From: Sedimentisphaera cyanobacteriorum
GTDB taxonomy: Bacteria > Planctomycetota > Phycisphaerae > Sedimentisphaerales > Sedimentisphaeraceae
Assembly: GCF_001997385.1 (NCBI RefSeq)
Contig: NZ_CP019633.1
Span: 1,770,001-1,802,000 of the forward strand
Length of the DNA stretch: 32,000 nt
Reading direction: 5' to 3'
Shown: positions 6,716 through 32,000 of the stretch, one piece after another
Position numbering within the stretch: position 1 is the stretch's first letter
Layout of the letters: each line of letters begins with the position of its first letter
Translations under genes and position numbers: made by a program
The notes under the pieces: generated by a model
What the model saw: only the letters and a program-made list of their open reading frames with translations
What the model was told of the DNA's origin: nothing
Databases searched by the model: none

Positions 6716-7540
6716 GTGCAATCATCTTGTAAAGCAGCAGGCATCAGCCGGGGCAGTTTTTACTATACTCCTTCAAGAAACGATGATGCTGAGGTAAAAA
6801 GACAGATAGAGCTGGTAATAGATTCCCGTCCTCGACGCGGATTTCCAAAGATATTCGACAGTATCCGCCGCAAGGGATATAGCTGGAATCACAAAAAGGT
6901 TTATCGTGTTTATAAGGAAAATGAATTTCAGCTTAACAACCGTAAAAAGAATTTGATAAGGCAAATAGAGCGTAAACCTATGCCAGAAGCTACGAGAGCT
7001 AATGAGATATGGAGTATTGATTTTATGAGCGATAGTTTGAGTAATGGTCGGCCATTCAGGGCTTTCAACGTTATCGATGAGTTTAACCGTGAGGCATTGG
7101 ATATTGAGATCGACACGAGCTTACCTTCGCTTCGCATAATTCGTAGCCTTGAATTAATAGGCTCTGATCGGGGTTTCCCCCGCTTTATTCGCAGCGATAA
7201 TGGGCCGGAATTTAGGAGCCTTCAATTTCGCAGGTTCTGCTGCCGAAACAGAATCAGGCACCGCCGTATAGAAGCAGGCAAGCCTCAGCAAAACAGTTTT
7301 ATTGAACGATTCAATCGGAGTTATCGAGAGGATATACTTGATATGTACAGTTTTAAGAATTTATCAGAAGCTCGTAATTTAACTTTAGATTGGCTTATAG
7401 AATATAATTATGAGCGTGGGCACGAATCACTGGGAGAGAAAACTCCTGTAGAGTATGTTCGCAGTTTTTTGCCTTTCACCCCTCAAAATAATTCTGAAGG
7501 GGCAAAAGGAAAAAACTGCTGTTTGAAGGAATTTGTCTAA
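6716..7540 (+). CDS. IS3-family transposase OrfB (DDE/rve catalytic domain), expressed as OrfAB fusion
   Basis: DDE core recognisable (WSIDFM; IRSDNGPEF; ERFNRSYREDIL). It lies in the -1 frame relative to orfA. The GTG at 6716 is only the ORF-track start; the frame is open upstream to the slippery site. Confidence 0.9.
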   Translation: MQSSCKAAGISRGSFYYTPSRNDDAEVKRQIELVIDSRPRRGFPKIFDSIRRKGYSWNHKKVYRVYKENEFQLNNRKKNLIRQIERKPMPEATRANEIWSIDFMSDSLSNGRPFRAFNVIDEFNREALDIEIDTSLPSLRIIRSLELIGSDRGFPRFIRSDNGPEFRSLQFRRFCCRNRIRHRRIEAGKPQQNSFIERFNRSYREDILDMYSFKNLSEARNLTLDWLIEYNYERGHESLGEKTPVEYVRSFLPFTPQNNSEGAKGKNCCLKEFV

Positions 7541-16434: not shown

Positions 16435-16488
16435 ATTGCAAGTGTTTATCTTACATCTATCAAAACATTGCAATATTGGGACAAAATA

Positions 16489-17832
16489 ATGAAGGCAAAA
16501 AACAATAAAGCAGGCTTACTCTTTCAGCAGCCATTAAAACCTCTTGTAAATCCTGATCACTCTTTAGTCCAACTCTCAGAGGTTGTCAACTGGTCTCGCT
16601 TTGAAGAAAAGTTTGGCAGTTTATACAGTCCTGATTCAGGCAGGCCGGCCAAGCCGATTCGCCTGATGGTCGGCCTTCAGTATCTCAAGTACACTTTCAA
16701 TCTCAGCGATGAAGCAATCGTTGCCGGCTGGGTTGAGAATCCTTACTGGCAGTATTTCTGCGGCGAAAGATACTTCCAGCACGAGCCTCCTATTGATCCA
16801 ACCAGTATGACTAAGTGGCGTAATAAGGTAAAATCTGATGGTCTTGAAGAGCTGCTCGAAGAAACTATCAAAGCCGGCTTGAAGCTTAAGGTTATCAAAA
16901 AGAACGATTTCAACAAGCTCGTTGCAGATACAACCGTTCAGCAGAAGAACATCACTTATCCGACCGACGCAAAACTCTGCCACAAACTGCGCATTAAGCT
17001 TGTAGATCTTGCAAAAGCATCAAAACTCCAACTTCGCCAAAGCTACGAAAGGGTTGGAAAAAGGGCGTATGTAATGCAGGGCAGGTATCGACGTGCAAGA
17101 CAGTTCAAAAGAGCTAAAAAAGAAGTGAAGAAATTAAGGAACTACCTGCGGCGAATTACGAAAGAGGTCGAGCGGAATATAGCAGGCAATGAGCAGTTAA
17201 GAATAATTTTTGATACATTGCTTCAAGCCGCTAAGAAGCTTTTAGCCCAGACAAAGAAAAGCAAAAATAAGCTCTACAGTATTCACGAACCTCACGTCTG
17301 CTGCATTGGGAAAGGCAAAAGCCACAAGAAATATGAGTTTGGAAATAAGGTTGGAATTGTAACTACTGCCAAGAATAATTTTATCGTAGGAGCGTTGGGC
17401 TTTGAAGGAAACCCTTATGATGGCCATACTCTTCGGGCTAATCTGAAGCAGACAATGAATTTAATCGGGAGAGAAAAGCTTGGAGATGTTTATGTTGATG
17501 GAGGATACAAGAAACATGGCTGCGAAGATATTGGAAATGTTGAAATTGTAGAAAAGGGCTGGCGAAAAAAGAAACGAAGTATCAAGAGGTGGATTAAGAG
17601 AAGATCGAGCATAGAACCAACGATAGGCCACCTCAAAGAAGACAACAGGTTGGGAAGAAACTTCTTGAAAGGTGTAGAAGGGGACAAAATGAACGCCCTC
17701 GGCAGCGCTTTTGGGTACAATATGCGTAAACTTCTAAAGAAGTTTACTTTTGCCTATATTTTTATGCTTAAAATTATTGAATTTTACAGAAATTTGGCAA
17801 TGAAAAGCAAATTAAAGACTCGATTAGCCTGA
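16489..17832 (+). CDS. IS5-family DDE transposase
   Basis: InsH/DUF772-type N-domain (GRPAKPIRLMVGLQYLKYTFNLSDE), DDE_Tnp_1 core, and the C-terminal IEPTIGHLKEDNRLGRNFLKG motif typical of IS5-family enzymes. The first ATG is 16489; the ORF track starts at TTG 16468. Confidence 0.85.
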   Translation: MKAKNNKAGLLFQQPLKPLVNPDHSLVQLSEVVNWSRFEEKFGSLYSPDSGRPAKPIRLMVGLQYLKYTFNLSDEAIVAGWVENPYWQYFCGERYFQHEPPIDPTSMTKWRNKVKSDGLEELLEETIKAGLKLKVIKKNDFNKLVADTTVQQKNITYPTDAKLCHKLRIKLVDLAKASKLQLRQSYERVGKRAYVMQGRYRRARQFKRAKKEVKKLRNYLRRITKEVERNIAGNEQLRIIFDTLLQAAKKLLAQTKKSKNKLYSIHEPHVCCIGKGKSHKKYEFGNKVGIVTTAKNNFIVGALGFEGNPYDGHTLRANLKQTMNLIGREKLGDVYVDGGYKKHGCEDIGNVEIVEKGWRKKKRSIKRWIKRRSSIEPTIGHLKEDNRLGRNFLKGVEGDKMNALGSAFGYNMRKLLKKFTFAYIFMLKIIEFYRNLAMKSKLKTRLA

Positions 17833-20459: not shown

Positions 20460-20482
20460 AAAACTAAATTGCATAAAAAAAA

Positions 20483-20512
20483 CCGCCCTCTGCTAAAGCT
20501 TGCAGAAGGCGG
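20483..20512 (-). terminator. Rho-independent terminator oriented for the minus-strand tRNA gene remnant
   Basis: 10/11-bp stem CCGCCCTCTGC / GCAGAAGGCGG. On the minus strand it is followed by T8 (A8 at 20475-20482 on +). It starts 5 nt after the tRNA 3' end. It may also stop the converging feo operon. Confidence 0.8.
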
Positions 20513-20517
20513 CAGAT

Positions 20518-20564
20518 TGGGCGATGAGGGATTCGAACCCGCGACCCGCTGATTAAGAGTCAGC
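20518..20564 (-). tRNA. tRNA-Lys(CUU) 3' half only (anticodon arm to discriminator): displaced att-site fragment, not a functional gene
   Basis: The minus strand reads GCTGA-CTCTTAA-TCAGC (anticodon arm, CUU), GGGTC, GCGGG-TTCGAAT-CCCTC (T arm, one C.U mismatch), ATGCCC-type 3' acceptor strand ATCGCCC plus discriminator A. No complementary 5' acceptor strand (GGGCGAT) or D arm exists upstream. Confidence 0.75.
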
Positions 20565-20785
20565 AGACCGAAAACGCTAAAAACATACAAGATAAAGACT
20601 TACAGCAAGGCGAAACCGGCGCTTACAAACCAGCTTACAAAGAAAACACAAAAACAAGCGAAAATCAAGCCAAAAACCTGCCGGATGATTTAGCGGAAAT
20701 TGTAGCGGTTTGGCCAACACTGCCCGAACATATTAAGGCGGCAATCAAAGCGATGATAGAGACGTTCAAGGCAAATTCAAAGTAG
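20528..20785 (+). pseudogene. Start-less 85-codon reading frame that begins inside the tRNA-derived sequence (possible C-terminal tail of a gene split at the att site)
   Basis: Checked codon by codon and open from the TGA at 20525 to the TAG at 20783. It reads GIRTRDPLIKSQQTENAK...LPDDLAEIVAVWPTLPEHIKAAIKAMIETFKANSK. No ATG/GTG/TTG occurs before the last 11 codons, so it cannot be an independent gene. Confidence 0.45.
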
Positions 20786-20858: not shown

Positions 20859-21470
20859 ATGCCAAGATACTTTTACTGGGATAAGAAAACCACTGTTGAA
20901 GAAGCAACGCAATTAAGCATATTTAAGCTTAAAGAGTTTGGTTTGTTGTGTGGTTATGCCGCTACGACCTTGACTTGGACACGCAAATTATCCGACCATA
21001 AAAGCTCTATCGGCATAGTAGTCGATACTGAAAATCTATACGCAAAAGTCAATTACACTATCACCGACCGAAACACAGACGAAAAAACGGATTATGACTA
21101 CAAAATCAGCCTTACAACAACGCCCTGTAATTTCGGGGGCAAGCGCTACTGGTTTATCTGTCCGTTAAGTGTGAACGGCTTATATTGCGGACGCAGGACG
21201 GGTACGCTTTATCTTGCTTCTGGGGGAAATTATTTCGGCTGTCGGCACTGTTATAACCTGTCTTATGAGAGCCGGAACGAATGTCGTTTAGGGCGGTTCG
21301 GCCAGATGGGATATGTTTTGAAGGCTGATAGGCAAATCGAAGAGCTTTACAAACAAATTAAGAGGTGGACTTGGGCAGGCAGGCCGACAAGGAAGGTACG
21401 GAAACTGCAAGCTCTTGAACAAAAAATGAATCGGGCAATTTCTTTGAGTGAAAGATTTCTTCTGGATTAA
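20859..21470 (+). CDS. Hypothetical protein with C-terminal zinc-ribbon-like Cys cluster
   Basis: 203 aa with GGAG upstream of the ATG. Motif C.FGGKRYWFICP....LYCGRR...LY......F.CRHCY.L.Y.S (four-Cys ribbon) is followed by a basic helical tail. No function known to me. Confidence 0.6.
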   Translation: MPRYFYWDKKTTVEEATQLSIFKLKEFGLLCGYAATTLTWTRKLSDHKSSIGIVVDTENLYAKVNYTITDRNTDEKTDYDYKISLTTTPCNFGGKRYWFICPLSVNGLYCGRRTGTLYLASGGNYFGCRHCYNLSYESRNECRLGRFGQMGYVLKADRQIEELYKQIKRWTWAGRPTRKVRKLQALEQKMNRAISLSERFLLD

Positions 21471-21635
21471 CCAACAGCTTTAATAGCCTTTTGCATTCGT
21501 CTGTCGTGTCATATAACTGCTTATGCAACACGATCTTATATTACTGAAAAAACGCTGGTGCTGTCTCATGTCTCCATTTTGTCACTGATTTGGCTTTCTT
21601 TTCCGGCTTGATTCGCCCCCATATATTTACGATAT

Positions 21636-21644
21636 AATCAATAT
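21636..21644. repeat. 9-bp target-site duplication (left copy) AATCAATAT
   Basis: Identical 9-mer directly abuts both IS4 ends (21636-21644 and 23059-23067). Confidence 0.9.
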
Positions 21645-23058
21645 CACTCTTGTCCAAGATAAATTATTGAAAAGTGAATAAAAAGCATCTCCGGTATGGT
21701 GTATATTATTTTTGCCGAATAACAGACACCTTAACACCGGAGATAAAAATATGATAAAGGTTGGCAGTTTATTTTCGCAAGTGCTTTCTTTGGTAAATCG
21801 CCATGATTTTTCGCGTGCGGTCAAGCAATGGGACGCTGAGAAAGGGGCCAAAGGCTTTCGCTGCTGGGACCAGTTTGTGGCAATGGTTTTTGGCCAACTG
21901 GCCGGGGCGGACTCGCTGCGGGAGATTGAAGGCGGCTTATCGACGGCCCTGGGCAAGCTGCGGCATCTGGGACTGAAGCAGGCTCCGGCCCGCTCGACGC
22001 TCAGTTATGCCAACGAGCATCGGCCGTATCAGCTCTTTGAAACGATGTTCTATTACCTGTCCGATCAAGCTCAAACACTGGCCGCCGGACAGAAGCGGCG
22101 GTTTCGGTTCAAGAATCCGTTGGTCAGCATCGATGCTTCGACGATTGAACTGTGCCTGTCGCTGTACGACTGGGCCAGGTTCCGGCGTAAAAAGGGAGCG
22201 GTTAAACTGCATTTGATGCTGAATCATCAGGGCTGCCTGCCGCAGTGGGCCTGGCTGACCGATGGGAAGGTCCATGACGTGAAAATGGCCAAAACCCTTG
22301 AATTTGAGCCGGGAACGATTGTTGCGGTGGATCGTGGCTATATTGATTACGATCTGTTTGACTATTGGACCGGTGAAGGCGTTTGGTTCGTGACCCGTGC
22401 CAAAAAGAATATGGCTTATCGGGTGGTCAAGACACGCGATATTCCCGACTATGGCAATATCCTGCGTGATGAAGAAATCGAGTTTACCGGCTACGATGCT
22501 TCCCATAAGTATCCGCACCGGCTGCGTCGGATTGTGGTTTGGGATGACGAAAACCAGCGTGAGATTGTGCTGCTGACCAATCATATGAACTTTGCGGCCA
22601 GTACCATTGGCCGAATTTATAAGGATCGCTGGCAGATTGAGTTGTTTTTTAAGGCAATCAAGCAGACTCTGAAGATTAAAACCTTTGTCGGCACCAGTGA
22701 AAATGCCGTGCAGATTCAGATTTGGACAGCATTATTGTGTATGCTGATCCTGAAGATCTTGCAGATGCGTTCGACGTTTGGCTGGAGCCTGTCGAATCTG
22801 GCGGCTATGTTGCGGTTTAACCTGCTGACGTACAGGGACTTGTGGGTATGGCTGAATAAGCCTTACCAAACTCCGGCCATCGGACCGCCGGAGGGCCAGT
22901 TATTATTGTTTGAATAGGATTTGGACAGCAAGAAGTGAACGATGAAATAAAATAGGGTAACCTGAACTTGAAAATTGGAACAAGTTGTCCGAAACAGACG
23001 TTTCGGTAAAGAATGTACGGAGATAGTCTGAAATCACAGATTATCTTGGACAGCAATG
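21645..23058 (+). mobile_element. IS4-family insertion sequence, intact, with 9-bp target duplication
   Basis: 1414 bp. Terminal inverted repeats: CACTCTTGTCCAAGATAAAT (21645-21664) vs the reverse complement of 23039-23058 (CATTGCTGTCCAAGATAATC). An extra subterminal copy TTGGACAGCAAG lies at 22921-22932. The element is flanked by a perfect 9-bp direct repeat. It is visibly more GC-rich than its flanks. Confidence 0.9.
21751..22917 (+). CDS. IS4-family DDE transposase (DUF4372-type N-terminus + DDE_Tnp_1)
   Basis: ATG 21751 with a GGAG RBS. N-terminus FSQVLSLV.RHDF...V....AEKG.K.F.CWDQFVAMVFGQL....SLREI. DDE core VSIDASTIELC, VAVDRGYIDY, IYKDRWQIELFFKAIKQ. Confidence 0.85.
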   Translation: MIKVGSLFSQVLSLVNRHDFSRAVKQWDAEKGAKGFRCWDQFVAMVFGQLAGADSLREIEGGLSTALGKLRHLGLKQAPARSTLSYANEHRPYQLFETMFYYLSDQAQTLAAGQKRRFRFKNPLVSIDASTIELCLSLYDWARFRRKKGAVKLHLMLNHQGCLPQWAWLTDGKVHDVKMAKTLEFEPGTIVAVDRGYIDYDLFDYWTGEGVWFVTRAKKNMAYRVVKTRDIPDYGNILRDEEIEFTGYDASHKYPHRLRRIVVWDDENQREIVLLTNHMNFAASTIGRIYKDRWQIELFFKAIKQTLKIKTFVGTSENAVQIQIWTALLCMLILKILQMRSTFGWSLSNLAAMLRFNLLTYRDLWVWLNKPYQTPAIGPPEGQLLLFE

Positions 23059-23067
23059 AATCAATAT
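23059..23067. repeat. 9-bp target-site duplication (right copy) AATCAATAT
   Basis: See left copy. It is followed immediately by the integrase ATG at 23068. Confidence 0.9.
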
Positions 23068-24066
23068 ATGAGAAAAGTATGGATTTACAAGCGAAAAAAC
23101 ATTAAAGGCTTTTGGGTGGGCTGGTACGAAAGCGGCATACGTAAAGCCAAAGTACTGCCCACAAAAGAACAAGCCGAGCACTTCAAACAGATAAAATACT
23201 CCCAACTCAATTCCGATGTTTTTACGGGCCAAGTATTAGCCGATTGGTCCCAGATGTGTAATGAATACAGAGAAGCAAAAAAAGTACAGGGTGTTACAGA
23301 TGGCACGCTTTATGAACATGCATTGACATTAAGAAATTTTGAACGTATTGTCGGAAAATGTAATTCAAAGCAAATCACTCAATGCATCATTGACAAGTTT
23401 ATACTTGAACGAGGAAAAGAAGTCAAAAAAGTCACGTTGAATAAAGATATCAGGAATATCAAAACTTTTGTTTACTGGTGTAGGGAACAACGATATTTAA
23501 ATGGCAACCTTAAGCTCAAGGAATTGAAATTAGAGGAACGCCCGGTGAAATCGCTCAATCATACCTAGGTAAGACAATTATTGAAAGCGGCTGAACTATA
23601 TCCAGCTATCAAAATGAGAATCGTGCTGGCGCTGGGAACAGGGCTTCGACGGGGTGATATAGAATCGCTGAAGATCACCGATATTGATTTTGAGAATAAC
23701 AGTATTACCACAACCAGTAAAAAGACTAAAAAGAGTATGGGCAATCGTCCGGTGCCGGAATCCATCATGAACATACTTAAGGTTTACATAAATAAATTAA
23801 GTCCCGATCAGGAAAAACTGTTCACCAAAAAATTCAATCCCCGGCAGTGGAGAAAAATTTGCATAGCCGCCGGTTTGAATGATCTTAAGTTTCACGATCT
23901 TCGCAAAATATTTGCTTCAGTGCTTGCTCAAAATGGAGTTTCGACTGCTGTGACACAGAGACTGCTTGAACACTCTTCACCGAATCTAACAAACAAGGTT
24001 TATACAAATATTGATCCTGTGCTTCGCCAATCTGTTGAAAAGCTGCCAATTCAGAAATGGCTGTAA
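23068..24066 (+). pseudogene. Tyrosine recombinase/integrase interrupted by one in-frame TAG (23566-23568)
   Basis: ORFs 23056-23568 and 23581-24066 are in the same frame. Read-through gives ...RPVKSLNHT*VRQLLKAAELYP..., a continuous integrase with an N-terminal SAM-like domain, catalytic Arg (GLRRGD), H-x-x-R (FHDLRKIF) and the terminal Tyr region (NKVYTNI). 23056-23067 is the IS end plus target duplication, so the native start is ATG 23068. Confidence 0.75.
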
Positions 24067-24195
24067 AATCACCTTAGCATATGGGTTCTTTAAATTCCTT
24101 TTCATACGGAAATTCCGTCCATTCTCTGCTTTTTTGGGTAACAATTCGTCTTGCCCGAACATAAGTACCTGTTATTAAACAAGTTAAAAAATTCA

Positions 24196-24207
24196 GGGGG
24201 GGGGGGG
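24196..24207. repeat. G12 homopolymer tract
   Basis: Twelve consecutive G counted directly. It ends 8 nt upstream of the -35 element of the promoter below. Confidence 0.95.
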
Positions 24208-24215
24208 TATTTCGG

Positions 24216-24244
24216 TTGCATTAAGTCAGGTTTGATGGTATAAT
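24216..24244 (+). promoter_or_regulatory. Near-consensus sigma-70-type promoter upstream of the FGE-domain gene
   Basis: TTGCAT (24216-24221), 17-nt spacer, TATAAT (24239-24244), about 90 nt upstream of ATG 24337. Sequence match only. Confidence 0.45.
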
Positions 24245-24336
24245 CGAGACCGTTTTAATGGATGCGGAAGGTGGTCTATACTCCCTCCCGCTATTTCTTG
24301 TTTGTGATCAACAATTATCTTATAGGAGATTTTGCT

Positions 24337-25383
24337 ATGAAACGTACAATCCTTATTGTCACGGCGGCTTTAACTGTACTTTTATCTACCCAGGTTTTTG
24401 CCAATTCAGCACCGGTGGTAAGTAATGTTTCAGCTTATCAGCGGGATGATGGCAGCGGGGTGTTGGATATTTCCTTTAAGCTGACCGATGCGGATAATGA
24501 TCGGTGCAGCATCTCGGTGGTGGCCAGCAATGACGGCGGCAGTACGTGGACGATTACGCCGTCATCATCGGCTTTGTCAGGTGCCTTAACGAATGTCTAT
24601 CCCGGCAATCGGAGTATCGCCTGGAACAGCAAGGTGGACCTGCCGGGAGTGTTCGGGCCCAATTACCGTGTGAAGGTAACGGCGGATGACGGCCAGGGTC
24701 CTTCGGGCATGGTGTGGGTGCAGATTAATGACCCCGGTGTATCGGGCCATGAGGGTTTCAATGGCGAAATGAGCAAGTATGAGACGACTAACGCCCAGTA
24801 CTGCCACTTTTTAAACGAAGCCCTTGCTTCCGGTGATATTGTTATAAGCGGCGGTGATGTTTACGGCAGCGGCGCCCCTTACGACGGACAGATTTACTAT
24901 GATTTAGATAGTAGCATTGCCCAGATTTCTTACAATGGAAGTTCTTTTTATGTCAAAACCCGCGATGGCTACAGTATGGCTAATCACCCTGTATTAGAAG
25001 TAAGCTGGTATGGTTCGATGGCGTTTGCCAGTTTCTACGGCTGGCGGTTGCCGACGGAGTGGGAGTGGCAGGCGGTGGCTGATTACAACGGTACTTTTAC
25101 TTACGGCTGCGGGACAACGATCAATACCAGTATTGCTAATTATCGATACTCCACCCATCCGCACGGCACGACGGCGGTTGGTGCGTTTGGGACGTATGGT
25201 TACGGGATGTGTGATATGGCGGGCAATGTCTGGGAGTGGACAAACTCTATCTACAGTGGCAGCTATCGACTTATCCGCGGCGGCTGCTGGTCCGGCCCCG
25301 ACCACTACTGCTCGGTCTCGCGCCGGAGCCCCACCAGCCCGTACCACTCGAGCTACGGCCTCGGGTTCCGGGTGTGTCGTTGA
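24337..25383 (+). CDS. Secreted formylglycine-generating-enzyme (FGE-sulfatase/SUMF1) domain protein with N-terminal beta-sandwich domain
   Basis: ATG 24337 with an AGGAG RBS gives the signal peptide MKRTILIVTAALTVLLSTQVFA. The C-terminal half has FGE-sulfatase signatures (HPV..VSWY...AF....GWRLPTE.EWQ.VA, GMCDMAGNVWEWT, R.IRGG.W, YGLGFRVCR). Clearly higher GC than neighbouring genes. Confidence 0.8.
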   Translation: MKRTILIVTAALTVLLSTQVFANSAPVVSNVSAYQRDDGSGVLDISFKLTDADNDRCSISVVASNDGGSTWTITPSSSALSGALTNVYPGNRSIAWNSKVDLPGVFGPNYRVKVTADDGQGPSGMVWVQINDPGVSGHEGFNGEMSKYETTNAQYCHFLNEALASGDIVISGGDVYGSGAPYDGQIYYDLDSSIAQISYNGSSFYVKTRDGYSMANHPVLEVSWYGSMAFASFYGWRLPTEWEWQAVADYNGTFTYGCGTTINTSIANYRYSTHPHGTTAVGAFGTYGYGMCDMAGNVWEWTNSIYSGSYRLIRGGCWSGPDHYCSVSRRSPTSPYHSSYGLGFRVCR

Positions 25384-25451
25384 GTATTGTGTCCCCTGGA
25401 TTTTTTTGTAAAACTTTGTACTTTGTTCTTTTACCCTGTTAGAGTTACAGA

Positions 25452-25709
25452 ATGTATTATGTTTACGTATTAGTCAGTGAAGTTGATGGGCAGTTCTATA
25501 CGGGAGCTACAGGAGACTTGAAAAAGCGTGTAAAAGAACACAATGAAGGCAAAGTGACTTCGACAGAGAAGAGAGGACCTCTTCATCTGGTTTACTATGA
25601 AGCTTGTCTCGACAAACGGGATGCTTTCAGAAGAGAGAAGTACCTGAAAACAGGTATGGGCAAACGTTATTTGAGAAACAGATTACGGGATACGTTGGAA
25701 AAACTCTAA
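25452..25709 (+). CDS. GIY-YIG nuclease family protein (small, stand-alone)
   Basis: 85 aa. YYVYVL....G.FYTG.T.DL.KRV.EHN.GK...T....P..LVYYE.......A..REK.LK matches the GIY-YIG/UPF0213 pattern. Confidence 0.85.
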   Translation: MYYVYVLVSEVDGQFYTGATGDLKKRVKEHNEGKVTSTEKRGPLHLVYYEACLDKRDAFRREKYLKTGMGKRYLRNRLRDTLEKL

Positions 25710-26256
25710 CAGGGTGAACCCTTTGCATCCGAGCGAAGCGAGGACCGAATTTAAAAATTTGAGATGGATATGAGTCAGGAATTGAAAACGCTTCATAACT
25801 TTTTTGGTGCAAACAAACAACGAAATCCTTGACACCGTTTTGTCTCCACTCGCATGTTTTTTTGCTAGCTATATGCACCCGAAAAAATCTGCGATAAAAG
25901 CCAAAAAACACAGATTGATAAAAATTTTTTAAGAAAATAGTATTTAATAGCCGGATGCTTTAATTGGGGGTAAGGGGGGATAAAAAGCTACAGCCTGAAA
26001 CAATATAGACCGTGTGTGCAGTGTTCTCTTTTTTTTGTCAAAATTCAGAGGGGGGATAGGGCTTTGAGGTAAGGCGAAGCGGCAGCGGCTCTATCGCGCA
26101 CGCGCGTAGAAATTTGTAGAAAAGAGACTCCTTTTTCAGTCAGAATCTTAGCCACGCCCCCCGCCGGTGTTTGCGATACTACCGGTACATAGGCCGTCTG
26201 CCGAGAGATAAGATTTTTCGGTTTAATTGAATAGTGGTGAGGTTCAATGAAAATTG

Positions 26257-26449: not shown

Positions 26450-29400
26450 ATGGCAAAGAAATTACCGGTCATAATAGACAATCGCAGCGGCAACACCGTA
26501 TTACAGGCACTTCAAAAACTTCTGCCTAATCTTCAGAAAATGGATATTGCTACTGGTGTTTTTGAGGTAGGCTCACTTTTGCATTTGGAGGGCCTATGGC
26601 AAGAGTTAGATAAAATCCGCATTATGATGGGAAATGAGACTACGAAAACCACTAAAAAAGTAATTATCGAAGGTCTTTTGAAAACCTCTGATGAGAGTAT
26701 TGAGCAGGAAAAGCAACGTGATGATGCTCTAACAGGACTTGCAGCTGTCCGGGAAGCTATTTCAAATAAACAAATTGTCCTGAAAACCTATTCCAAAGCC
26801 AAATTTCACGCCAAATCATACTTAATGGAATCCAAAGAGGTCAGCCCTGTCGATTTTGCTATTGTCGGCAGCTCAAATTTTACTCGACCGGGGTTAACGG
26901 AAAACCTTGAGCTTAACCTCTTTAGTACTGACCAAGCCCATATTGAGGGTCTGAGGAGCTGGTATGATCAAGTTTGGAAAGAAGGTGAGGATGTCAGTCC
27001 TGAGATTATTAACGTAATTGCCCCACACCTGAAAGAATACGCTCCATTCACGGCTTATGCTAAAGCTCTCTATGAATTTTTCGCTGGCCGTGAAAAAAGT
27101 CAAGATGAATGGGAACTTACCGAGTCGGTATTGTATTCCAGGCTTTCCCAATACCAAAAGGACGGCTATCATCAGGCGCTTCAGATAGCGGACAGATGGG
27201 GAGGTTCACTTGTTTGTGACGGTGTTGGTCTCGGAAAAACATTTATAGGTTTGATGATATTGGAGCGATGTCTTCACGAAGATCAAAGAATACTCTTGAT
27301 TGTTCCAAAATCCGCAGAAGAAAGTGTTTGGCGAGCTAACATACAGCGGTATTTAAAACCACATTATGCGATAGAATTAAATGAGCGACTCAGAATAGAA
27401 AGACATACAAGTTTTGGTCGTGAAGGACTGATTAATGAGGACTGGCTTAACTATTACCGCAAACGTTCAGATGTAATCATCATGGATGAAGCCCACCATT
27501 TCCGCAATCCTCGAACTAACCGCGGGCAGCTATTTATGGATTTAGCTGCTGATAAGAAGCTCTATATGCTCACGGCAACACCGATCAATAATTCTCTCGA
27601 TGATTTATACCACTTGATTAATTATTTCGCGCAGGGCAAAAAAGACCACTTCTCCAGCATTCGTATTCAAAACCTTAGAGGCCATTTTCTTGACGCTGAG
27701 AAGCGGATGGAGAAAAAACATCCCGAAACAGAAGTTGCTGAAATAGCTGAGGATGAAGATTTTCTCCGTACTGATGACTTACTGCGTAACGTCTTAATTC
27801 AGCGAAGCCGTAAATACGTTAAAAAATCAGAAGGTATTGATGGTGATGGGCCATTATTTCCTCAAAGACAAAAACCAAGGGTTGTTCATTATTCGCTGAA
27901 AAGCGTTTATGAAAGTTTATATGGCGAAATCAAAGAGGCGTTCGACAAGAAAAATCCATTCCTGTCTTTGGCAATATATAACACCTCAGCCTATCACAAA
28001 GACCCCGACAAACAGACAGCTGAGTACCAAAAGCTGGTAGTTGGCCTCATTCGAACATTATTGCTTAAACGGCTTGAAAGCTCATTCAAAGCTTTCGAGG
28101 CCAGCGTTGAAGATTTACTGGCCAAAATGGCACAATTCTTAAAATACTTTTCGCCCGGGCTATTCCAGGCATGGGAAACTAAAAATACGCGGTGGTGGAA
28201 ACTTGCCCAGAGCCATATAGTCGAAAGGCTTGAACTTAATGAAAAAGACACAGAAAACGAAGAAGAAGACGACATTCCTGAATTTGCTCAGGACTTCGAT
28301 CCTGACCAGCACGATATGGATAAGCTGATGGCTGATGTTGAAGAGGATATGGAACTGCTAACCAACTTCCTCAGTAAAATCTACAGACGTTTTTATATAA
28401 AAGGTAAAGAAGGCGAAGCCGAAGACCCGGAGAAAGACAGCAAGCTTCAAAACCTGCTTGCACTGTTCTCCGATGAGCCGCTGCTGAATAATCAAAAGGC
28501 CATCATATTCACTGAATTTAGAAATACTGCCCGATACCTGAAAGACCAGCTTACAAAAGCCGGCCTTGAAAATGTCGAGCAGGTTGACAGCGGCAGAAAT
28601 GTAACAAATCGCGAAATGGTAATCAAACGCTTCGCTCCTTACTATAACTGCGGCTTAGCTGATTCTCCTGATTTGCTTGGCCAGACCGAGCTTTCAAAAT
28701 GCCTGGATGATCCAATCGACATTCTCATTTCAACAGATGTTCTCTCTGAAGGCTTGAACCTCCAGGATGCCAGTCTAATTATCAATTATGACCTGCATTG
28801 GAATCCGGTTCGGCTGATGCAGCGTATAGGCCGTGTTGACAGGCGGCTTAATCCGGATATAGAAGAAATGCTTGATAGGCCCCCGGAGCTAAAACATAAA
28901 GTGTATTTCTGGAATTTTCTGCCGCCAAAGGAGCTTGAAGACTTACTGCACCTAAAGAAAAAACTGGATGGCAAGATATTGCGAATAAATAAAACGCTCG
29001 GTATCGAAGGTGCGCTGCTTACACCGGATGACCCCGATATGGCAATGAAACTTTTCAACGAGCGTTATGAAGGCAAAGAAACTATAGAAGAGCTGATGCG
29101 GCTGGAAAAACAGCGAATCGAAGCAGAAAACCCACAAATCTGGCAATCGCTCGAAAAACTCCCCAAACGCCTGTTCAGCGGCAAGAAAGCTGGTGCCGGT
29201 TTTGGTGCTATTGTCAATCGCAGAGGTGAGGAAATCGACCGCCTTGAACCGAATACCAAGCCCGGTTTATTTGCCTGCTACCGTATGCCGCCTATTATTG
29301 GAAAAGCGGCTGAGTATCTCGAAGAAGTCACCCAAGAAAAATACGACCCCGAAAAACACCCGCAGGGCGAGGTGAAATGGTATTTCCGGGACGACGAAAC

Positions 29401-29605
29401 CGGTAAAATCAGCGAGGTACTGGAAGAAACCTGGACGGCTGTCAGATGTGCTAAAGATACCGCCCGCACTGTTGAGCAGGGAGTAACCAAACTTGCCCCT
29501 GCCCGAAAAGATATAGAAAAACACATTAAAAATACCTACCTGAAAGACATACAGGCCCCGATAGGAGCAAAGCCGACTTTAATCTCATGGATGGAGATAA
29601 GCTGA
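26450..29605 (+). CDS. PLD-nuclease domain fused to SNF2-family (SF2) helicase/ATPase
   Basis: 1051 aa. N-terminal HKD motif (FHAKSYL ... GSSNFT; His codon at 26807). Helicase motif I DGVGLGKT (27218-27241) and motif II DEAH (27485-27496). Helicase_C region (LISTDVLSEGLNLQDAS..INYDLHWNPVRLMQRIGRVDR). Confidence 0.85.
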   Translation: MAKKLPVIIDNRSGNTVLQALQKLLPNLQKMDIATGVFEVGSLLHLEGLWQELDKIRIMMGNETTKTTKKVIIEGLLKTSDESIEQEKQRDDALTGLAAVREAISNKQIVLKTYSKAKFHAKSYLMESKEVSPVDFAIVGSSNFTRPGLTENLELNLFSTDQAHIEGLRSWYDQVWKEGEDVSPEIINVIAPHLKEYAPFTAYAKALYEFFAGREKSQDEWELTESVLYSRLSQYQKDGYHQALQIADRWGGSLVCDGVGLGKTFIGLMILERCLHEDQRILLIVPKSAEESVWRANIQRYLKPHYAIELNERLRIERHTSFGREGLINEDWLNYYRKRSDVIIMDEAHHFRNPRTNRGQLFMDLAADKKLYMLTATPINNSLDDLYHLINYFAQGKKDHFSSIRIQNLRGHFLDAEKRMEKKHPETEVAEIAEDEDFLRTDDLLRNVLIQRSRKYVKKSEGIDGDGPLFPQRQKPRVVHYSLKSVYESLYGEIKEAFDKKNPFLSLAIYNTSAYHKDPDKQTAEYQKLVVGLIRTLLLKRLESSFKAFEASVEDLLAKMAQFLKYFSPGLFQAWETKNTRWWKLAQSHIVERLELNEKDTENEEEDDIPEFAQDFDPDQHDMDKLMADVEEDMELLTNFLSKIYRRFYIKGKEGEAEDPEKDSKLQNLLALFSDEPLLNNQKAIIFTEFRNTARYLKDQLTKAGLENVEQVDSGRNVTNREMVIKRFAPYYNCGLADSPDLLGQTELSKCLDDPIDILISTDVLSEGLNLQDASLIINYDLHWNPVRLMQRIGRVDRRLNPDIEEMLDRPPELKHKVYFWNFLPPKELEDLLHLKKKLDGKILRINKTLGIEGALLTPDDPDMAMKLFNERYEGKETIEELMRLEKQRIEAENPQIWQSLEKLPKRLFSGKKAGAGFGAIVNRRGEEIDRLEPNTKPGLFACYRMPPIIGKAAEYLEEVTQEKYDPEKHPQGEVKWYFRDDETGKISEVLEETWTAVRCAKDTARTVEQGVTKLAPARKDIEKHIKNTYLKDIQAPIGAKPTLISWMEIS

Positions 29606-29606
29606 T

Positions 29607-32000
29607 ATGACCCCGCTGGATATAGATAGAATAAGACAGGTTGATGATTTTGAATCGCTTGTTGTGTTTTTACGAGATGAGCTTGAATGGCCGCTGCAAG
29701 CAGAAGATATTGAAGACCTTTCATTTGATTATGAACCCGAAGAACTCGGCATATCAGATGAAGTCGCCGTCAAGATAAACTATATAAAACAGCTTCGGCC
29801 ATTGGCAGATAATCAGCCGTGGGGCATTTTTTATATCGACTTTGAACCGAAAAAGCTGCCTGTGGTGGTGCTTCGCAGAGTACTTCAAAAACTGGTAATC
29901 AAAAAGCGTTCAACCTCACAGAAATCAAACATGCCCGGTTGGCAGATGAATGACTTGCTTTTCATCAATTCTTTTGGCCAGCAGGACCAAAGGGAAATCA
30001 CTTTTGCTCATTTCAGGCAGGAAGATGATAATCAACTTCCGACATTGAAAGTTATTGGCTGGGATGGACAGGATACTCCGCTTCATCTTGACCGCTGCCA
30101 AAATGAATTGGGCCACCTAAGATTTGATCCTGACACCGATGCCGAAACATGGCGAACAAACTGGTCGACGGCGTTCACAACTACACACAGACATACTATC
30201 AGCACTTCTAAGAAGTTGGCACAGGAACTTGCCGAATTGGCGAAAATAGTGCGAGTGAACGCAGAACACATCCTCAAATATGAAACCGAGGGCGGGCGAT
30301 TCAAAAAAGCAATGGCAAAATTCAAAACCGCCCTGATTCACGATCTGACCGAAGAAGATTTTGCCGATATGTACGCTCAGACCATCGCTTACGGCCTGCT
30401 TTATACCGCTATCCGCAGTCACGTCTCCGGCGAAGCGAACGCGGTTTCCACTGAACGCGTCCAGCAGCTTGTCCTGCCAACTAATCCATTTCTAAAAGAA
30501 GTGATGGAGGGCTTTTTCAATATCGGTGCTCGTAAATGGGATTCTGAAAAGGAGATGATAACCGGCATTGAGTTTGATGAACTGGGTATCAATGAAATCA
30601 TCAGCACCTTAAAGGACGAGAGAACAGATTTCGATGCTATCCTGCGGGACTTCGGCAACAAAAACCCAAACGAAGACCCCGTTATTCACTTCTATGAGCT
30701 TTTTCTCAAAGAATACGATGCCCTTAAGCGAAAATCCAGAGGTGTCTATTATACCCCTCAGCCGGTTGTATCTTTTATTGTCAGAAGTGTTGACCAAGTC
30801 TTAAAACGTGATTTTAAACTGCCGCTCGGCCTTGCCGATACTACAACCTGGGGACAGATGCACAAAAATAATCCTGATATTAAGATTCCTGACGGGGTAA
30901 GTGAGGATGATTTCTTCGTGCAGATTCTCGACCCTGCTTTAGGGACCGGTACTTTCCTTGTCGAGACAATAGATTTAATTCACAAGACAATGATCGAAAC
31001 CTGGCAAGACAAGGGTAAAAATGAAGAAGAAATCAAACAGCTATGGAATCAATATGTACCGGATTGCCTGCTGCCGCGTCTTTACGGTTTTGAACTTATG
31101 ATGGCTCCGTATGCCATTGCCCATATGAAAATCGGAATCAAACTCTTTGAAACCGGCTATCAGAATTTTCAGCAGGATAACCAACGCGTCCGTGTTTATC
31201 TTACCAATACGCTCGAAGAACCTGTCGATACCACCGAATATCTTGCCACCCTTGACCCTGCTATGGCTGAAGAAACCCGTCAGGCAAATGAAGTTAAAAA
31301 GAAAGACTCAATCACGGTAGTTATTGGAAACCCCCCATACTCCGGTTTATCGTTTAATATGAATTCGTGGATAGACGGTTTACTAAAGGGTCAAATCCCT
31401 AACGGTCCCAAAGTTCGCAGTTATTATGAAGTTGATGGTCAGCCTTTGGGCGAAAGAAAACTTTGGCTTCAGGATGATTATGTTAAATTCATTCGTTATA
31501 GCCAATTTCGTTTAGATAATACTGGCATTGGAGTTATGGGCCTGATTACCAACCACGCCTATCTTGATAATCCAACATTTAGAGGTATGAGACAGGCATT
31601 GCTGGAAAGTTTTGACATTCTGAATTTCGTAGATTTACACGGTAACGCCAAGAAAACAGAAGTGCCTCCAGAAGGTTTAGCTAATGAAAATGTCTTTGAT
31701 ATTCAACAGGGTGTAGGTGTTTGCCTACTAAGAAATACTCAAAAAACAGATCAATCACACGTTTCTTATGCAAGCTTTTGGGGAAGCCGTGAAAACAAAT
31801 ACACCCTTTCTCTGAAGAATACAACTTATACCGTAGATTGTGATAGGCTATCACCTAATTCTCCATACTATTTCTTTGTTCCCAGAGATGAAGACAATCG
31901 TGATGAATATGAAAATTGCTATAAGATTAACGATATTATGGCAGTTAATGTTACCGGAATTGTTACCGCAAGAGATGAGTTTGTAATCGATTTTGACAGC
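29607..32000 (+). CDS. Large N6-adenine DNA methyltransferase (type IIG/DrmMI/PglX-like), 3' end outside window
   Basis: Not in the ORF track because no stop is reached. I translated it by hand: ATG 29607 lies 1 nt after the SNF2 TGA and the frame is open for 798 codons to the window end. Motifs: RGVYYTP, motif I DPALGTGTF (30930-30956), motif IV NPPY (31329-31340). A ~300-aa N-terminal region was not recognised. Confidence 0.85.
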   Translation, partial: MTPLDIDRIRQVDDFESLVVFLRDELEWPLQAEDIEDLSFDYEPEELGISDEVAVKINYIKQLRPLADNQPWGIFYIDFEPKKLPVVVLRRVLQKLVIKKRSTSQKSNMPGWQMNDLLFINSFGQQDQREITFAHFRQEDDNQLPTLKVIGWDGQDTPLHLDRCQNELGHLRFDPDTDAETWRTNWSTAFTTTHRHTISTSKKLAQELAELAKIVRVNAEHILKYETEGGRFKKAMAKFKTALIHDLTEEDFADMYAQTIAYGLLYTAIRSHVSGEANAVSTERVQQLVLPTNPFLKEVMEGFFNIGARKWDSEKEMITGIEFDELGINEIISTLKDERTDFDAILRDFGNKNPNEDPVIHFYELFLKEYDALKRKSRGVYYTPQPVVSFIVRSVDQVLKRDFKLPLGLADTTTWGQMHKNNPDIKIPDGVSEDDFFVQILDPALGTGTFLVETIDLIHKTMIETWQDKGKNEEEIKQLWNQYVPDCLLPRLYGFELMMAPYAIAHMKIGIKLFETGYQNFQQDNQRVRVYLTNTLEEPVDTTEYLATLDPAMAEETRQANEVKKKDSITVVIGNPPYSGLSFNMNSWIDGLLKGQIPNGPKVRSYYEVDGQPLGERKLWLQDDYVKFIRYSQFRLDNTGIGVMGLITNHAYLDNPTFRGMRQALLESFDILNFVDLHGNAKKTEVPPEGLANENVFDIQQGVGVCLLRNTQKTDQSHVSYASFWGSRENKYTLSLKNTTYTVDCDRLSPNSPYYFFVPRDEDNRDEYENCYKINDIMAVNVTGIVTARDEFVIDFDS

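Follow-up and report, generated by a model that had tools for sequence, protein, structure and literature searches.

The locus studied here raises a simple question: why does an open reading frame (ORF) of 85 codons, with no start codon, begin inside what looks like one half of a transfer RNA (tRNA) gene? We analysed a 32,000-nucleotide stretch of Sedimentisphaera cyanobacteriorum DNA (contig NZ_CP019633.1, positions 1,770,001 to 1,802,000), hereafter called the window, whose own numbering is used throughout. Its minus strand carries the displaced 3' half of tRNA-Lys(CUU) at 20518-20564, and the frame, at 20528-20785 on the plus strand, reads straight out of it. Our answer, which we hold with considerable confidence, is that the window contains the left junction of an island from a planctomycete family of integrative elements in which the tyrosine integrase gene crosses its own attachment (att) site. 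We interpret the tRNA half as the att core at this junction and the frame as the cut-off 3'-terminal piece of the element's integrase gene, a piece that would lack a start codon because it was never a separate gene.

The identity of the tRNA half, proposed in an initial annotation made from the letters alone, was borne out when the minus strand was read arm by arm from 20564 to 20518. It comprises the anticodon arm (stem GCTGA at 20564-20560, loop CTCTTAA, stem TCAGC at 20552-20548, with the anticodon CTT at 20557-20555), a variable loop GGGTC, a T arm at 20542-20526 (stem GCGGG, loop TTCGAAT, stem CCCTC, with one C-U mismatch) and the 3' strand of the acceptor, ATCGCCC plus discriminator A, at 20525-20518. 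Because ARAGORN found zero tRNAs in the whole 32-kb window and the Rfam tRNA model gave only a partial match (18.3 bits against a gathering score of 29, with good alignment restricted to the anticodon and T arms), we conclude that the gene piece has neither a D arm nor the 5' strand of the acceptor, as had been claimed; this sub-threshold partial match was all that a covariance model recovered where a complete tRNA might have been detected. An intrinsic terminator native to the tRNA-Lys gene, i.e., chromosomal DNA, follows at 20482-20513 on the minus strand (terminator scan). The strong hairpin with T8 described initially is indeed present (12 pairs, eight of them G-C), although it starts 4 nt, not 5 nt, past the discriminator. 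The T stem is fully paired in the intact tRNA-Lys of a related locus, L024, as against the C-U mismatch in the window's fragment (20526-20542, minus strand). Functional-RNA readings, namely a split or permuted tRNA, a tmRNA-like RNA and a tRNA intron, were considered and rejected. The anticodon arm is whole, with the break on its 5' side; what is conserved in the upstream sequence is its coding content and its repeats rather than any structure; and Rfam reported nothing else.

The frame itself runs on the plus strand from the antisense of the tRNA core through a linker into a conserved tail, and ends with TAG at 20783-20785. It is preceded by TGA, translates as GIRTRDPLIKSQ...AMIETFKANSK and contains no ATG, GTG or TTG ORF of at least 40 amino acids (aa), which confirms the 85-codon frame without a usable start that had been noted initially. 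A word-indexed search of 5.8 billion proteins returned 298 homologues (E down to 2e-29, identity 60-75%; length 60-141 aa among the matches listed), and an exhaustive profile search of 1.84 billion cluster representatives returned 1,461 matching ones. The best 150 of these 1,461 all measured 42-229 aa, and for most of the 150 the match ran to or near the C-terminus. Almost all of the homologous clusters are short ORFs abutting tRNA 3' halves in Planctomycetota. Their alignment has the consensus …NKDLQQxxxGAYKPAYKxNPKTAENQxxxLPxDLAEIVAVWPELPEHIKAAIKALVQT…, with similar stop positions, indels in whole codons and no conserved start codon. The variable N-termini of these ORFs are the antisense-translated 3' halves of differing tRNAs, e.g., …DPLIKSQ (Lys), …DLRFRKP (Arg) and …GFEPP…KRFSRPS (Ser).

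We retrieved 79 related genome loci, almost all from metagenome-assembled genomes (MAGs) of Planctomycetota, with several loci per genome; a scan of genome contigs gave relatives only, the best being 72% identical to the window. The fragments found directly upstream of the module in these 79 loci derive from Lys CUU, Ser UGA, Ser GCU, Cys, Phe, Tyr, Met, Thr and Asp tRNAs and from the Arg tRNAs CCU, UCU, UCG, ACG and CCG, so that the family has at least 13 different tRNA targets. In two of the loci (L053 1-591 and L057 1735-2487) the tail frame lacks the usual stop and runs into an extra domain of about 130 aa, which reads …VIYNVGYQFRTLEDVL…VLVDVRSIPYSRKNKDF…; the tail is thus fused to the downstream gene.

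Both island ends could be located in five relatives, in agreement with the earlier proposal of an island junction at a tRNA gene whose intact copy is rebuilt at the far end. In L001, the fragment shares a perfect 52-nt repeat with an intact tRNA-Arg(CCU) that lies 6.3 kb away on the same strand. Perfect repeats were also present in L024 (tRNA-Lys CUU, 50 nt, island of 9.4 kb), L042 (tRNA-Ser GCU, 67 nt, 9.4 kb), L052 (tRNA-Ser UGA, 61 nt, 6.7 kb) and L058 (tRNA-Thr UGU, 48 nt, 1.9 kb), i.e., the repeats span 48-67 nt. In each of the five loci one copy of the repeat is the displaced fragment and the other lies within the intact tRNA, on the same strand. The repeats extend from the tRNA 3' end to 2-3 nt past the 5' side of the anticodon stem, the pattern that would be expected from a crossover in the anticodon loop. 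An identity block reaching from the anticodon stem to the tRNA 3' end reportedly defines the anticodon-loop sublocation class, a grouping said to go back to Williams in 2002.

The initial annotation had itself raised the caveat that the frame might be open by chance. Such a frame would lie in a decayed tRNA gene and at no island junction, and frames of 85 codons do arise by chance in DNA of 45% G+C. The tail searches did not bear this out. The 1,461 homologous clusters stand against it, as do the direct-repeat island boundaries in relatives and the synteny of the flanking element genes with related loci; in view of the homologues, the direct repeats and the simulated excision (see below) we count chance as already refuted and leave it next to no probability.

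The gene to which the tail belongs was identified from the opposite island end. When the integrase body of L009 was used in tblastn, L024, L042 and L052 each proved to have a homologous body just before the intact tRNA, on the module's strand. To simulate excision in these loci, we took the far-end sequence as far as the repeat's last base and fused it to what follows the repeat at the near end. The join was in frame in all three testable loci, which have three different cores, including those of tRNAs with long variable arms: the products were 552 aa in L024, 567 aa in L042 and 563 aa in L052, and the corresponding integrated forms stop 14, 150 and 94 nt beyond the core. The initial suggestion that the att site of the free element (attP) lies inside one of the element's genes was upheld here, simulated excision having joined a tyrosine integrase ORF to the tail.

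Extending every module frame upstream to the preceding stop revealed naturally fused forms in L009 (569 aa, one ORF) and L059, and two database proteins, P0140 (557 aa) and P0189 (551 aa), are fused as well. Both loci encode a complete tyrosine integrase that continues in frame into the linker, the antisense tRNA half and the tail; a variant of the tail is also contiguous with an integrase in L080. The L009 integrase had 1,372 database homologues at E ≤ 1e-20. Among the best 120 of these, the tail is missing in 118 and present only in P0140 and P0189, and the tail-less homologues end in, or just past, the antisense of an intact tRNA (e.g., …DPLIKSQLLCQLS and …RTCDPLIKSQLLCQLS, both followed by the stop, and …DLRFRKPTLYPTELRAQ…). 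Pfam domain PF00589 was present, as a precomputed annotation, on all 120 listed homologues, and in the integrase bodies of the relatives the tyrosine recombinase motifs (H-x-L-R-H, Y) read …FHALRHE…LYTH… and …FHSLRHS…RYTH…. The split falls at least about 100 residues downstream of the catalytic Tyr motif (…RYTH…/…LYTH…), and the integrase body left after it retains its start and all domains. These results support the reading that the interrupted gene is the element's own integrase and that the att core sits in the int ORF at a point past the catalytic domain. In the relatives, comparative reconstruction shows how the gene is split. A tblastn search against 50,697 phage records gave remote catalytic-domain matches only, and no tail.

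For the window's own copy, the evidence that the att site lies in an integrase gene is frame compatibility only. Fifteen Lys-targeting integrase bodies arrive at the core as …D(P/R)LIK(S/N)Q…, and the window's frame reads …DPLIKSQ… over the same nucleotides; therefore, the window piece is frame-compatible with the Lys-targeting integrases of the family. The contigs of L009 and L059, which have the fused, attP-like arrangement, were binned as 'Candidatus Paceibacterota' and 'Proteobacteria' MAGs, in a family that is otherwise planctomycete, and may represent mis-binned free circular elements.

Could the frame instead be an independent small gene, e.g., for an excisionase-like or regulatory peptide with a non-canonical or core-embedded start, merely situated beside the att site? 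Hundreds of such ORFs are annotated, some with ATG or TTG exactly at the core boundary (P0018, P0028 and P0099), and the tail is under purifying selection (see below). Nevertheless, the start codon is not conserved and the window copy has none; the called N-termini are antisense tRNA or unrelated flank, and the region from core to tail is near-neutral at the protein level. All three testable loci, moreover, join the integrase in frame over about 170 stop-free codons, fused proteins exist in nature, and in L080 the tail variant is contiguous with the integrase. We regard a separate gene as improbable.

The frame proved to be constrained in two different ways along its length, as seen in a codon-wise analysis of 33 distinct modules based on the proportions of synonymous (pS) and nonsynonymous (pN) differences. 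The conserved C-terminal tail domain is encoded at 20684-20782 on the plus strand (LPDDLAEIVAVWPTLPEHIKAAIKAMIETFKANSK) and is predicted to form two helices. The last ~30 codons (LPxDLAEIVAVWPxLPEHIKAAIKALVQ) gave pS 0.69, pN 0.15 and pN/pS 0.22; codon positions 1 and 2 were conserved at 0.9-1.0 and position 3 at 0.33-0.7, near saturation. These codons are under purifying selection at the protein level. The AYKPAYK segment, nearly always encoded as GCTTACAAACCAGCTTACAAA, behaved otherwise: its three codon positions are equally conserved and pS is halved (pS 0.34, pN 0.29, pN/pS 0.85). The rest of the frame is under weak constraint (pS 0.57-0.62, pN 0.41-0.43, pN/pS 0.67-0.75). Over the first ~40 codons, where pN/pS is 0.67-0.85, conservation acts on the DNA, in the form of arm-type repeats, and not on the protein.

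These repeats lie in the region 20565-20683 (plus strand), which would be the P' arm of the former attP and encodes a weakly constrained, predicted-disordered linker. Two direct copies of the 9-bp sequence GCTTACAAA occur there on the plus strand at 20621-20629 and 20633-20641, 12 nt from start to start, and are read as AYKPAYK; the window has four copies of GCTTACAAA against 0.36 expected, two of which form this pair (20621-20641). In L052, L034, L035, L038, L040 and L041 this DNA is translated in a different frame, giving SLQTSLQT, and downstream of it the frame encodes the tail (LPxDLAEI...) again. A matching GCTTACAAA pair with the 12-nt period lies about 190 nt upstream of the core, in the integrase linker, in L024, L052 and L009, and within these 14-20-kb loci the pairs are confined to the two core flanks. 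In a second subfamily (L042), both core flanks carry TTGACACC repeats in place of GCTTACAAA. The window itself shows the P' pair only. The GCTTACAAA repeats are probably arm-type integrase sites, and the N-terminal domain of the integrase would bind them.

This pattern also bears on the reading that conservation is purely at the DNA level, i.e., that the module is an attP arm with sites for the integrase and accessory proteins and the open frame a functionless by-product. In its favour, conservation of the GCTTACAAA pair and the bases around it extends to every codon position, the subfamilies read this DNA in two frames, and the pN/pS of the first 40 codons fits such a view. It does not account for the last 30 codons, with positions 1 and 2 nearly invariant at a position 3 near saturation, nor for indels in multiples of three, a conserved stop position, the return to the LPxDLAEI... 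frame where the repeats are read in the other one, and the two helices confidently predicted by AlphaFold. We give it very little credence as an explanation of the whole frame.

The AlphaFold model of the tail is disordered over residues 1-40 (predicted local distance difference test, pLDDT, 54-61) and has helices at 41-48 and 55-71 with a pLDDT of about 90, so the initial description of the tail as helical-looking held. In the fused homologue P0140, the N-terminal, core-binding and catalytic domains are confidently folded, the linker (residues 395-520) is disordered with pLDDT below 50, and the tail helices occupy residues 528-556. The N-terminal domain (residues 12-74) is modelled as a three-stranded sheet plus helix with pLDDT above 90 and is predicted to be the arm-site binder. 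Foldseek matched the P0140 model to Brujita Int, XerA and lambda Int (E 1e-8 to 6e-10), and full-length lambda integrase was among the best PDB matches, aligned over about 400 columns. By the AlphaFold models, the attP (P arm, tRNA core and P' arm) thus lies within DNA for a disordered tether. Docking of the tail in the AlphaFold model was discarded as uninterpretable, only one alignment row having both body and tail. Nor did the alignment support an ssrA-like degron at the C-terminus, the tails having variable, polar ends (…THNKETK, …FKANSK).

The window and the loci L020 and L022 are 88% identical in nucleotide sequence over a stretch that starts at the second arm repeat and takes in the tail and the first downstream gene, which encodes 203 aa (window 20629 / L020 2543 onward). 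Upstream of this repeat they differ, and so do the tRNAs (Lys CUU in the window vs Arg UCG). The pattern points to an exchange of modules whose breakpoint was the arm site.

The reconstruction suggests the following course of events. In the free (attP) form, the integrase would be a protein of about 550-570 aa composed, in order, of an N-terminal beta-sheet domain, core-binding and catalytic domains, a disordered linker of about 125 aa and a two-helix tail of about 30 aa. The DNA encoding the linker would itself be the attP: an upstream arm with two or three of the 9-bp repeats about 190 bp before the core, a core of 48-67 bp that copies the 3' half of a tRNA gene and is translated antisense to it, and a downstream arm with two further copies of the same 9-bp repeat about 55 bp past the core. 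On integration, recombination in the anticodon arm of the host tRNA gene would rebuild the tRNA at one island end, where the integrase body would enter the antisense of the tRNA 5' half and soon stop. The remainder of the linker and the tail would be moved to the other end, beside the displaced native tRNA 3' half and its terminator, which in the window corresponds to 20482-20785. By analogy with systems discussed below, loss of the tail would alter the activity, stability or directionality of the integrase, so that the enzyme of a free element would differ from that of an integrated one, and the full integrase gene would be regained on excision. More tentatively, and with slightly less than even confidence, we propose that this is a large bacterial counterpart of the archaeal 'suicidal' integrases, in which integration strips a selected C-terminal domain as a built-in switch of directionality or commitment, and that the attP hidden in linker DNA lets the family hop between its 13 or more tRNA targets in one ORF.

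Gene annotation agrees with the initial assignment of core genes, feoAB among them, to the left of the junction and of accessory or mobile genes to the right. On the left are genes for LeuRS, PurH, AroD/E, IspD, FeoA, FeoB and a FeoB-associated protein; on the right are a transposase, a recombinase, an HKD+SNF2 helicase and a type IIG restriction-modification enzyme. Two more insertion-sequence transposases lie among the core genes on the left, at 6716-7540 and 16468-17832, one with an rve integrase core and the other with DUF772 and DDE domains.

The first complete gene of the element (20859-21470, plus strand) encodes a Cys-rich protein of 203 aa. In at least 20 related loci, tblastn placed a homologue of it behind the tail; identity is 95% with L022, 93% with L020, 92% with L039 and 69% with L009. 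It had zero matches in Pfam, PHROG or PADLOC, and its position suggests that it may be an accessory recombination factor. The next 4.45 kb (21499-25942), flanked by a 10-bp direct repeat (TTTAATAGCC), are a nested secondary insertion lying outside the split-integrase module, because L020 and L022 pass straight from the equivalent of window position 21488 to that of 25943. Within it lie genes for an IS4-like DDE transposase that includes DUF4372 (21712-22917), a small tyrosine recombinase composed of a SAM-like N domain and a catalytic domain (23056-24066), an FGE-sulfatase-domain protein (24262-25383) and a GIY-YIG protein (25452-25709). The recombinase is cut into two ORFs by a single in-frame TAG at 23566-23568 and would be either a pseudogene or dependent on read-through. 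As a candidate for the element's integrase it was rejected: it is small, has no linker or tail, is interrupted by the TAG, is unrelated to the split-integrase family, with only 27% identity to its integrase, and sits in an insertion absent from L020 and L022. A second small tyrosine recombinase, of 216 aa, is encoded in L024 (10205-10855) right after the stop codon of the tail; its similarity to that of the window is generic only (26% identity, E 2e-4).

Beyond the insertion, the cargo on the plus strand consists of an HKD(PLD)+SNF2 helicase gene (26450-29605; PADLOC C3a139 'HKD+Snf2', 5.5e-64) and a type IIG restriction-modification-like gene (29607 to beyond 32000; PADLOC REase_MTase_IIG, 1.1e-146), which overlap at the helicase stop codon. 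The island extends beyond the last base of the window. The same pair lies behind the tail in L047 and L026, with about 68-71% nucleotide identity. Synteny with L020, L022, L009, L047 and L026 covers the tail, the 203-aa gene and the helicase/methylase cargo; what the window has in common with L009 is limited to the first two. Related small elements carry primase-like, helix-turn-helix (HTH) and replication-type genes.

How far, then, does the proposed explanation hold for this particular copy? Several points weigh against it. Neither a tRNA nor a family integrase body was found in the 11.4 kb to the right of the junction (ARAGORN, tblastn), so that the integrase body which the island has, or once had, would lie beyond base 32000. 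The last 50 nt of the window had no exact match in metagenome contigs, and exact-protein look-ups of FeoB, the 203-aa protein and the helicase found no record. The circular or excised form is represented by simulated excision, and L009 and L059 could be junctions of tandem arrays rather than free elements, although both would give the same sequence arrangement. Binding of the 9-bp repeats by the integrase and an effect of tail loss are putative, and separate expression of the tail is possible in some elements because gene callers find ATG or TTG at the core boundary in some relatives.

The island may, above all, be a dead remnant, in which the tail and the tRNA fragment are fossils, the integrase body and the far tRNA junction have been lost or rearranged, and nothing can be rejoined. 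The missing body and tRNA fit this, as do two hints of age. One is the nested 4.45-kb element with its insertion sequence. The other is the C-U mismatch in the displaced T stem, which may reflect decay of an unselected fragment and hints that integration was not recent. Degenerate islands without an integrase, 1.3-6.3 kb long, do exist (L001, L045 and L058), and the window's island may have decayed like the integrase-less L001. However, the tail frame is intact, with neither stop nor frameshift, and differs from its closest relatives, L020 and L022, at two of the last 35 residues; the cargo genes are long intact ORFs, and the absence of the far end tells little because related islands with similar cargo are plausibly longer than 11 kb. 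We consider a dead remnant possible but distinctly the less probable state, and it would bear on the condition of this copy alone, not on the identity of the feature.

The integrating-element reading, if correct, has consequences beyond this locus. It sets the view of a recent review on tyrosine recombinases, that integrases disrupting their own gene belong to archaea only (PMC8371274), against a whole bacterial family, with more than 1,300 integrase homologues and about 1,460 detached-tail clusters, found mostly in Phycisphaerae and other Planctomycetota. It would explain hundreds of 'hypothetical protein' calls beside tRNA fragments in planctomycete MAGs, as well as 'integrase' calls overlapping tRNA genes, and it gives a simple rule for locating both ends of such islands. 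With their defence cargo (HKD+SNF2 helicase, type IIG enzyme), the elements are likely vehicles of defence-island mobility in Planctomycetota. They also offer a natural system for asking whether an integrase remodelled covalently by its own reaction controls directionality, and an example of protein-coding DNA doubling as a recombination site, with the att functions placed in a disordered-linker region tolerant of change.

Among known systems, tRNA islands of the Islander type share with this family the direct repeats, formed by a displaced 3' fragment and a regenerated tRNA, that mark the island ends. In most described islands of this type the integrase is complete and lies beside the att site, whereas the planctomycete integrase lies across it; in the window the displaced 3' fragment is present and the integrase is represented by its 3' end at 20528-20785 only. 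The resemblance to heterobivalent integrases of the lambda type consists of a three-domain body and short direct repeats on both core flanks. The planctomycete repeats vary between subfamilies, with the same repeat on both sides within a subfamily. Lambda attP is intergenic, while the planctomycete arm sites and core lie inside the integrase ORF, and, unlike lambda Int, the planctomycete integrase has an extra conserved C-terminal tail domain.

In the mycobacteriophages BPs, Brujita and Charlie and their relatives, attP lies within a gene, and integration removes its 3' end to give a shorter protein with different properties (PMC4557955). This integration-dependent immunity resembles the present case in being bacterial and in having attP inside an element gene, and is a precedent for integration as a covalent switch. 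The interrupted gene of the BPs type encodes the repressor and not, as here, the integrase, and the piece removed has 33 residues with an ssrA-like degradation tag, whereas the planctomycete tails are not ssrA-like.

The SSV-type suicidal integrases of viruses and plasmids (SSV1/2, pTN3, pT26-2) have been found exclusively in archaea, the integrase gene and att site forming one compact module (PMC8371274). They share with the planctomycete family a recombination site in the integrase ORF, a gene split to opposite ends of the element and tRNA targets. The initial annotation had drawn the comparison with SSV1, and it is apt because the ORF joined to the tail is a tyrosine integrase; it fails in that the split removes the C-terminal tail and not the N-terminus. 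In the SSV type, the split separates Int(N) from the catalytic Int(C), neither piece being a complete enzyme, whereas the planctomycete elements lose only a C-terminal tail that follows a disordered linker, so that promoter and start stay with the catalytic body. The Pfam families differ too: PF16795 (Phage_integr_3) with archaeal hosts for the SSV type, and PF00589 for the planctomycete integrase.

The usual isolated bacterial counter-example to self-disrupting integrases confined to archaea is Myxococcus phage Mx8. Its target is tRNA-Asp, its attP lies in the 3' part of the int ORF, and integration gives int a new 3' end (PMC6070905, PMC4383910). In our own reading of its Int (AF396866), the antisense of the tRNA T arm is translated in frame (…ARSTGLEPV…) and is followed by about 115 residues. 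As in Mx8 IntP/IntX, the planctomycete system is bacterial, has the att core in the int ORF and leaves the catalytic domain intact in the prophage form; as in IntX, the integrated form encodes a shorter, different C-terminus, which here stops 14-150 nt beyond the core. A functional difference between full-length and tail-less integrase is putative, by analogy. Sequence comparison found no detectable similarity between Mx8 Int and the reconstructed L024 integrase (BLASTP, best E 0.29), and Mx8 was absent among the phage tblastn matches listed. The planctomycete tail is unrelated to that of Mx8. Mx8 is a tailed phage of 49.5 kb, and the planctomycete elements, from 6.7 kb up, carry primase, HTH and defence cargo. 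The recognisable tRNA-derived stretch is limited in Mx8 to the T arm and acceptor, and in the planctomycete core comprises the whole 3' half from the anticodon stem. Unlike Mx8, the planctomycete family is large and has at least 13 tRNA targets.

The arrangement was initially described as rare in bacteria, which it is, although the Mx8 precedent had been missed; besides this precedent, the analysis adds the identity of the split gene as the integrase, the C-terminal nature of the loss and the DNA-level conservation of the first ~40 codons. No earlier description of a planctomycete split-integrase family was found in the literature searched, which mostly left out subscription journals. The family is a new and large bacterial form of a known but rare arrangement.

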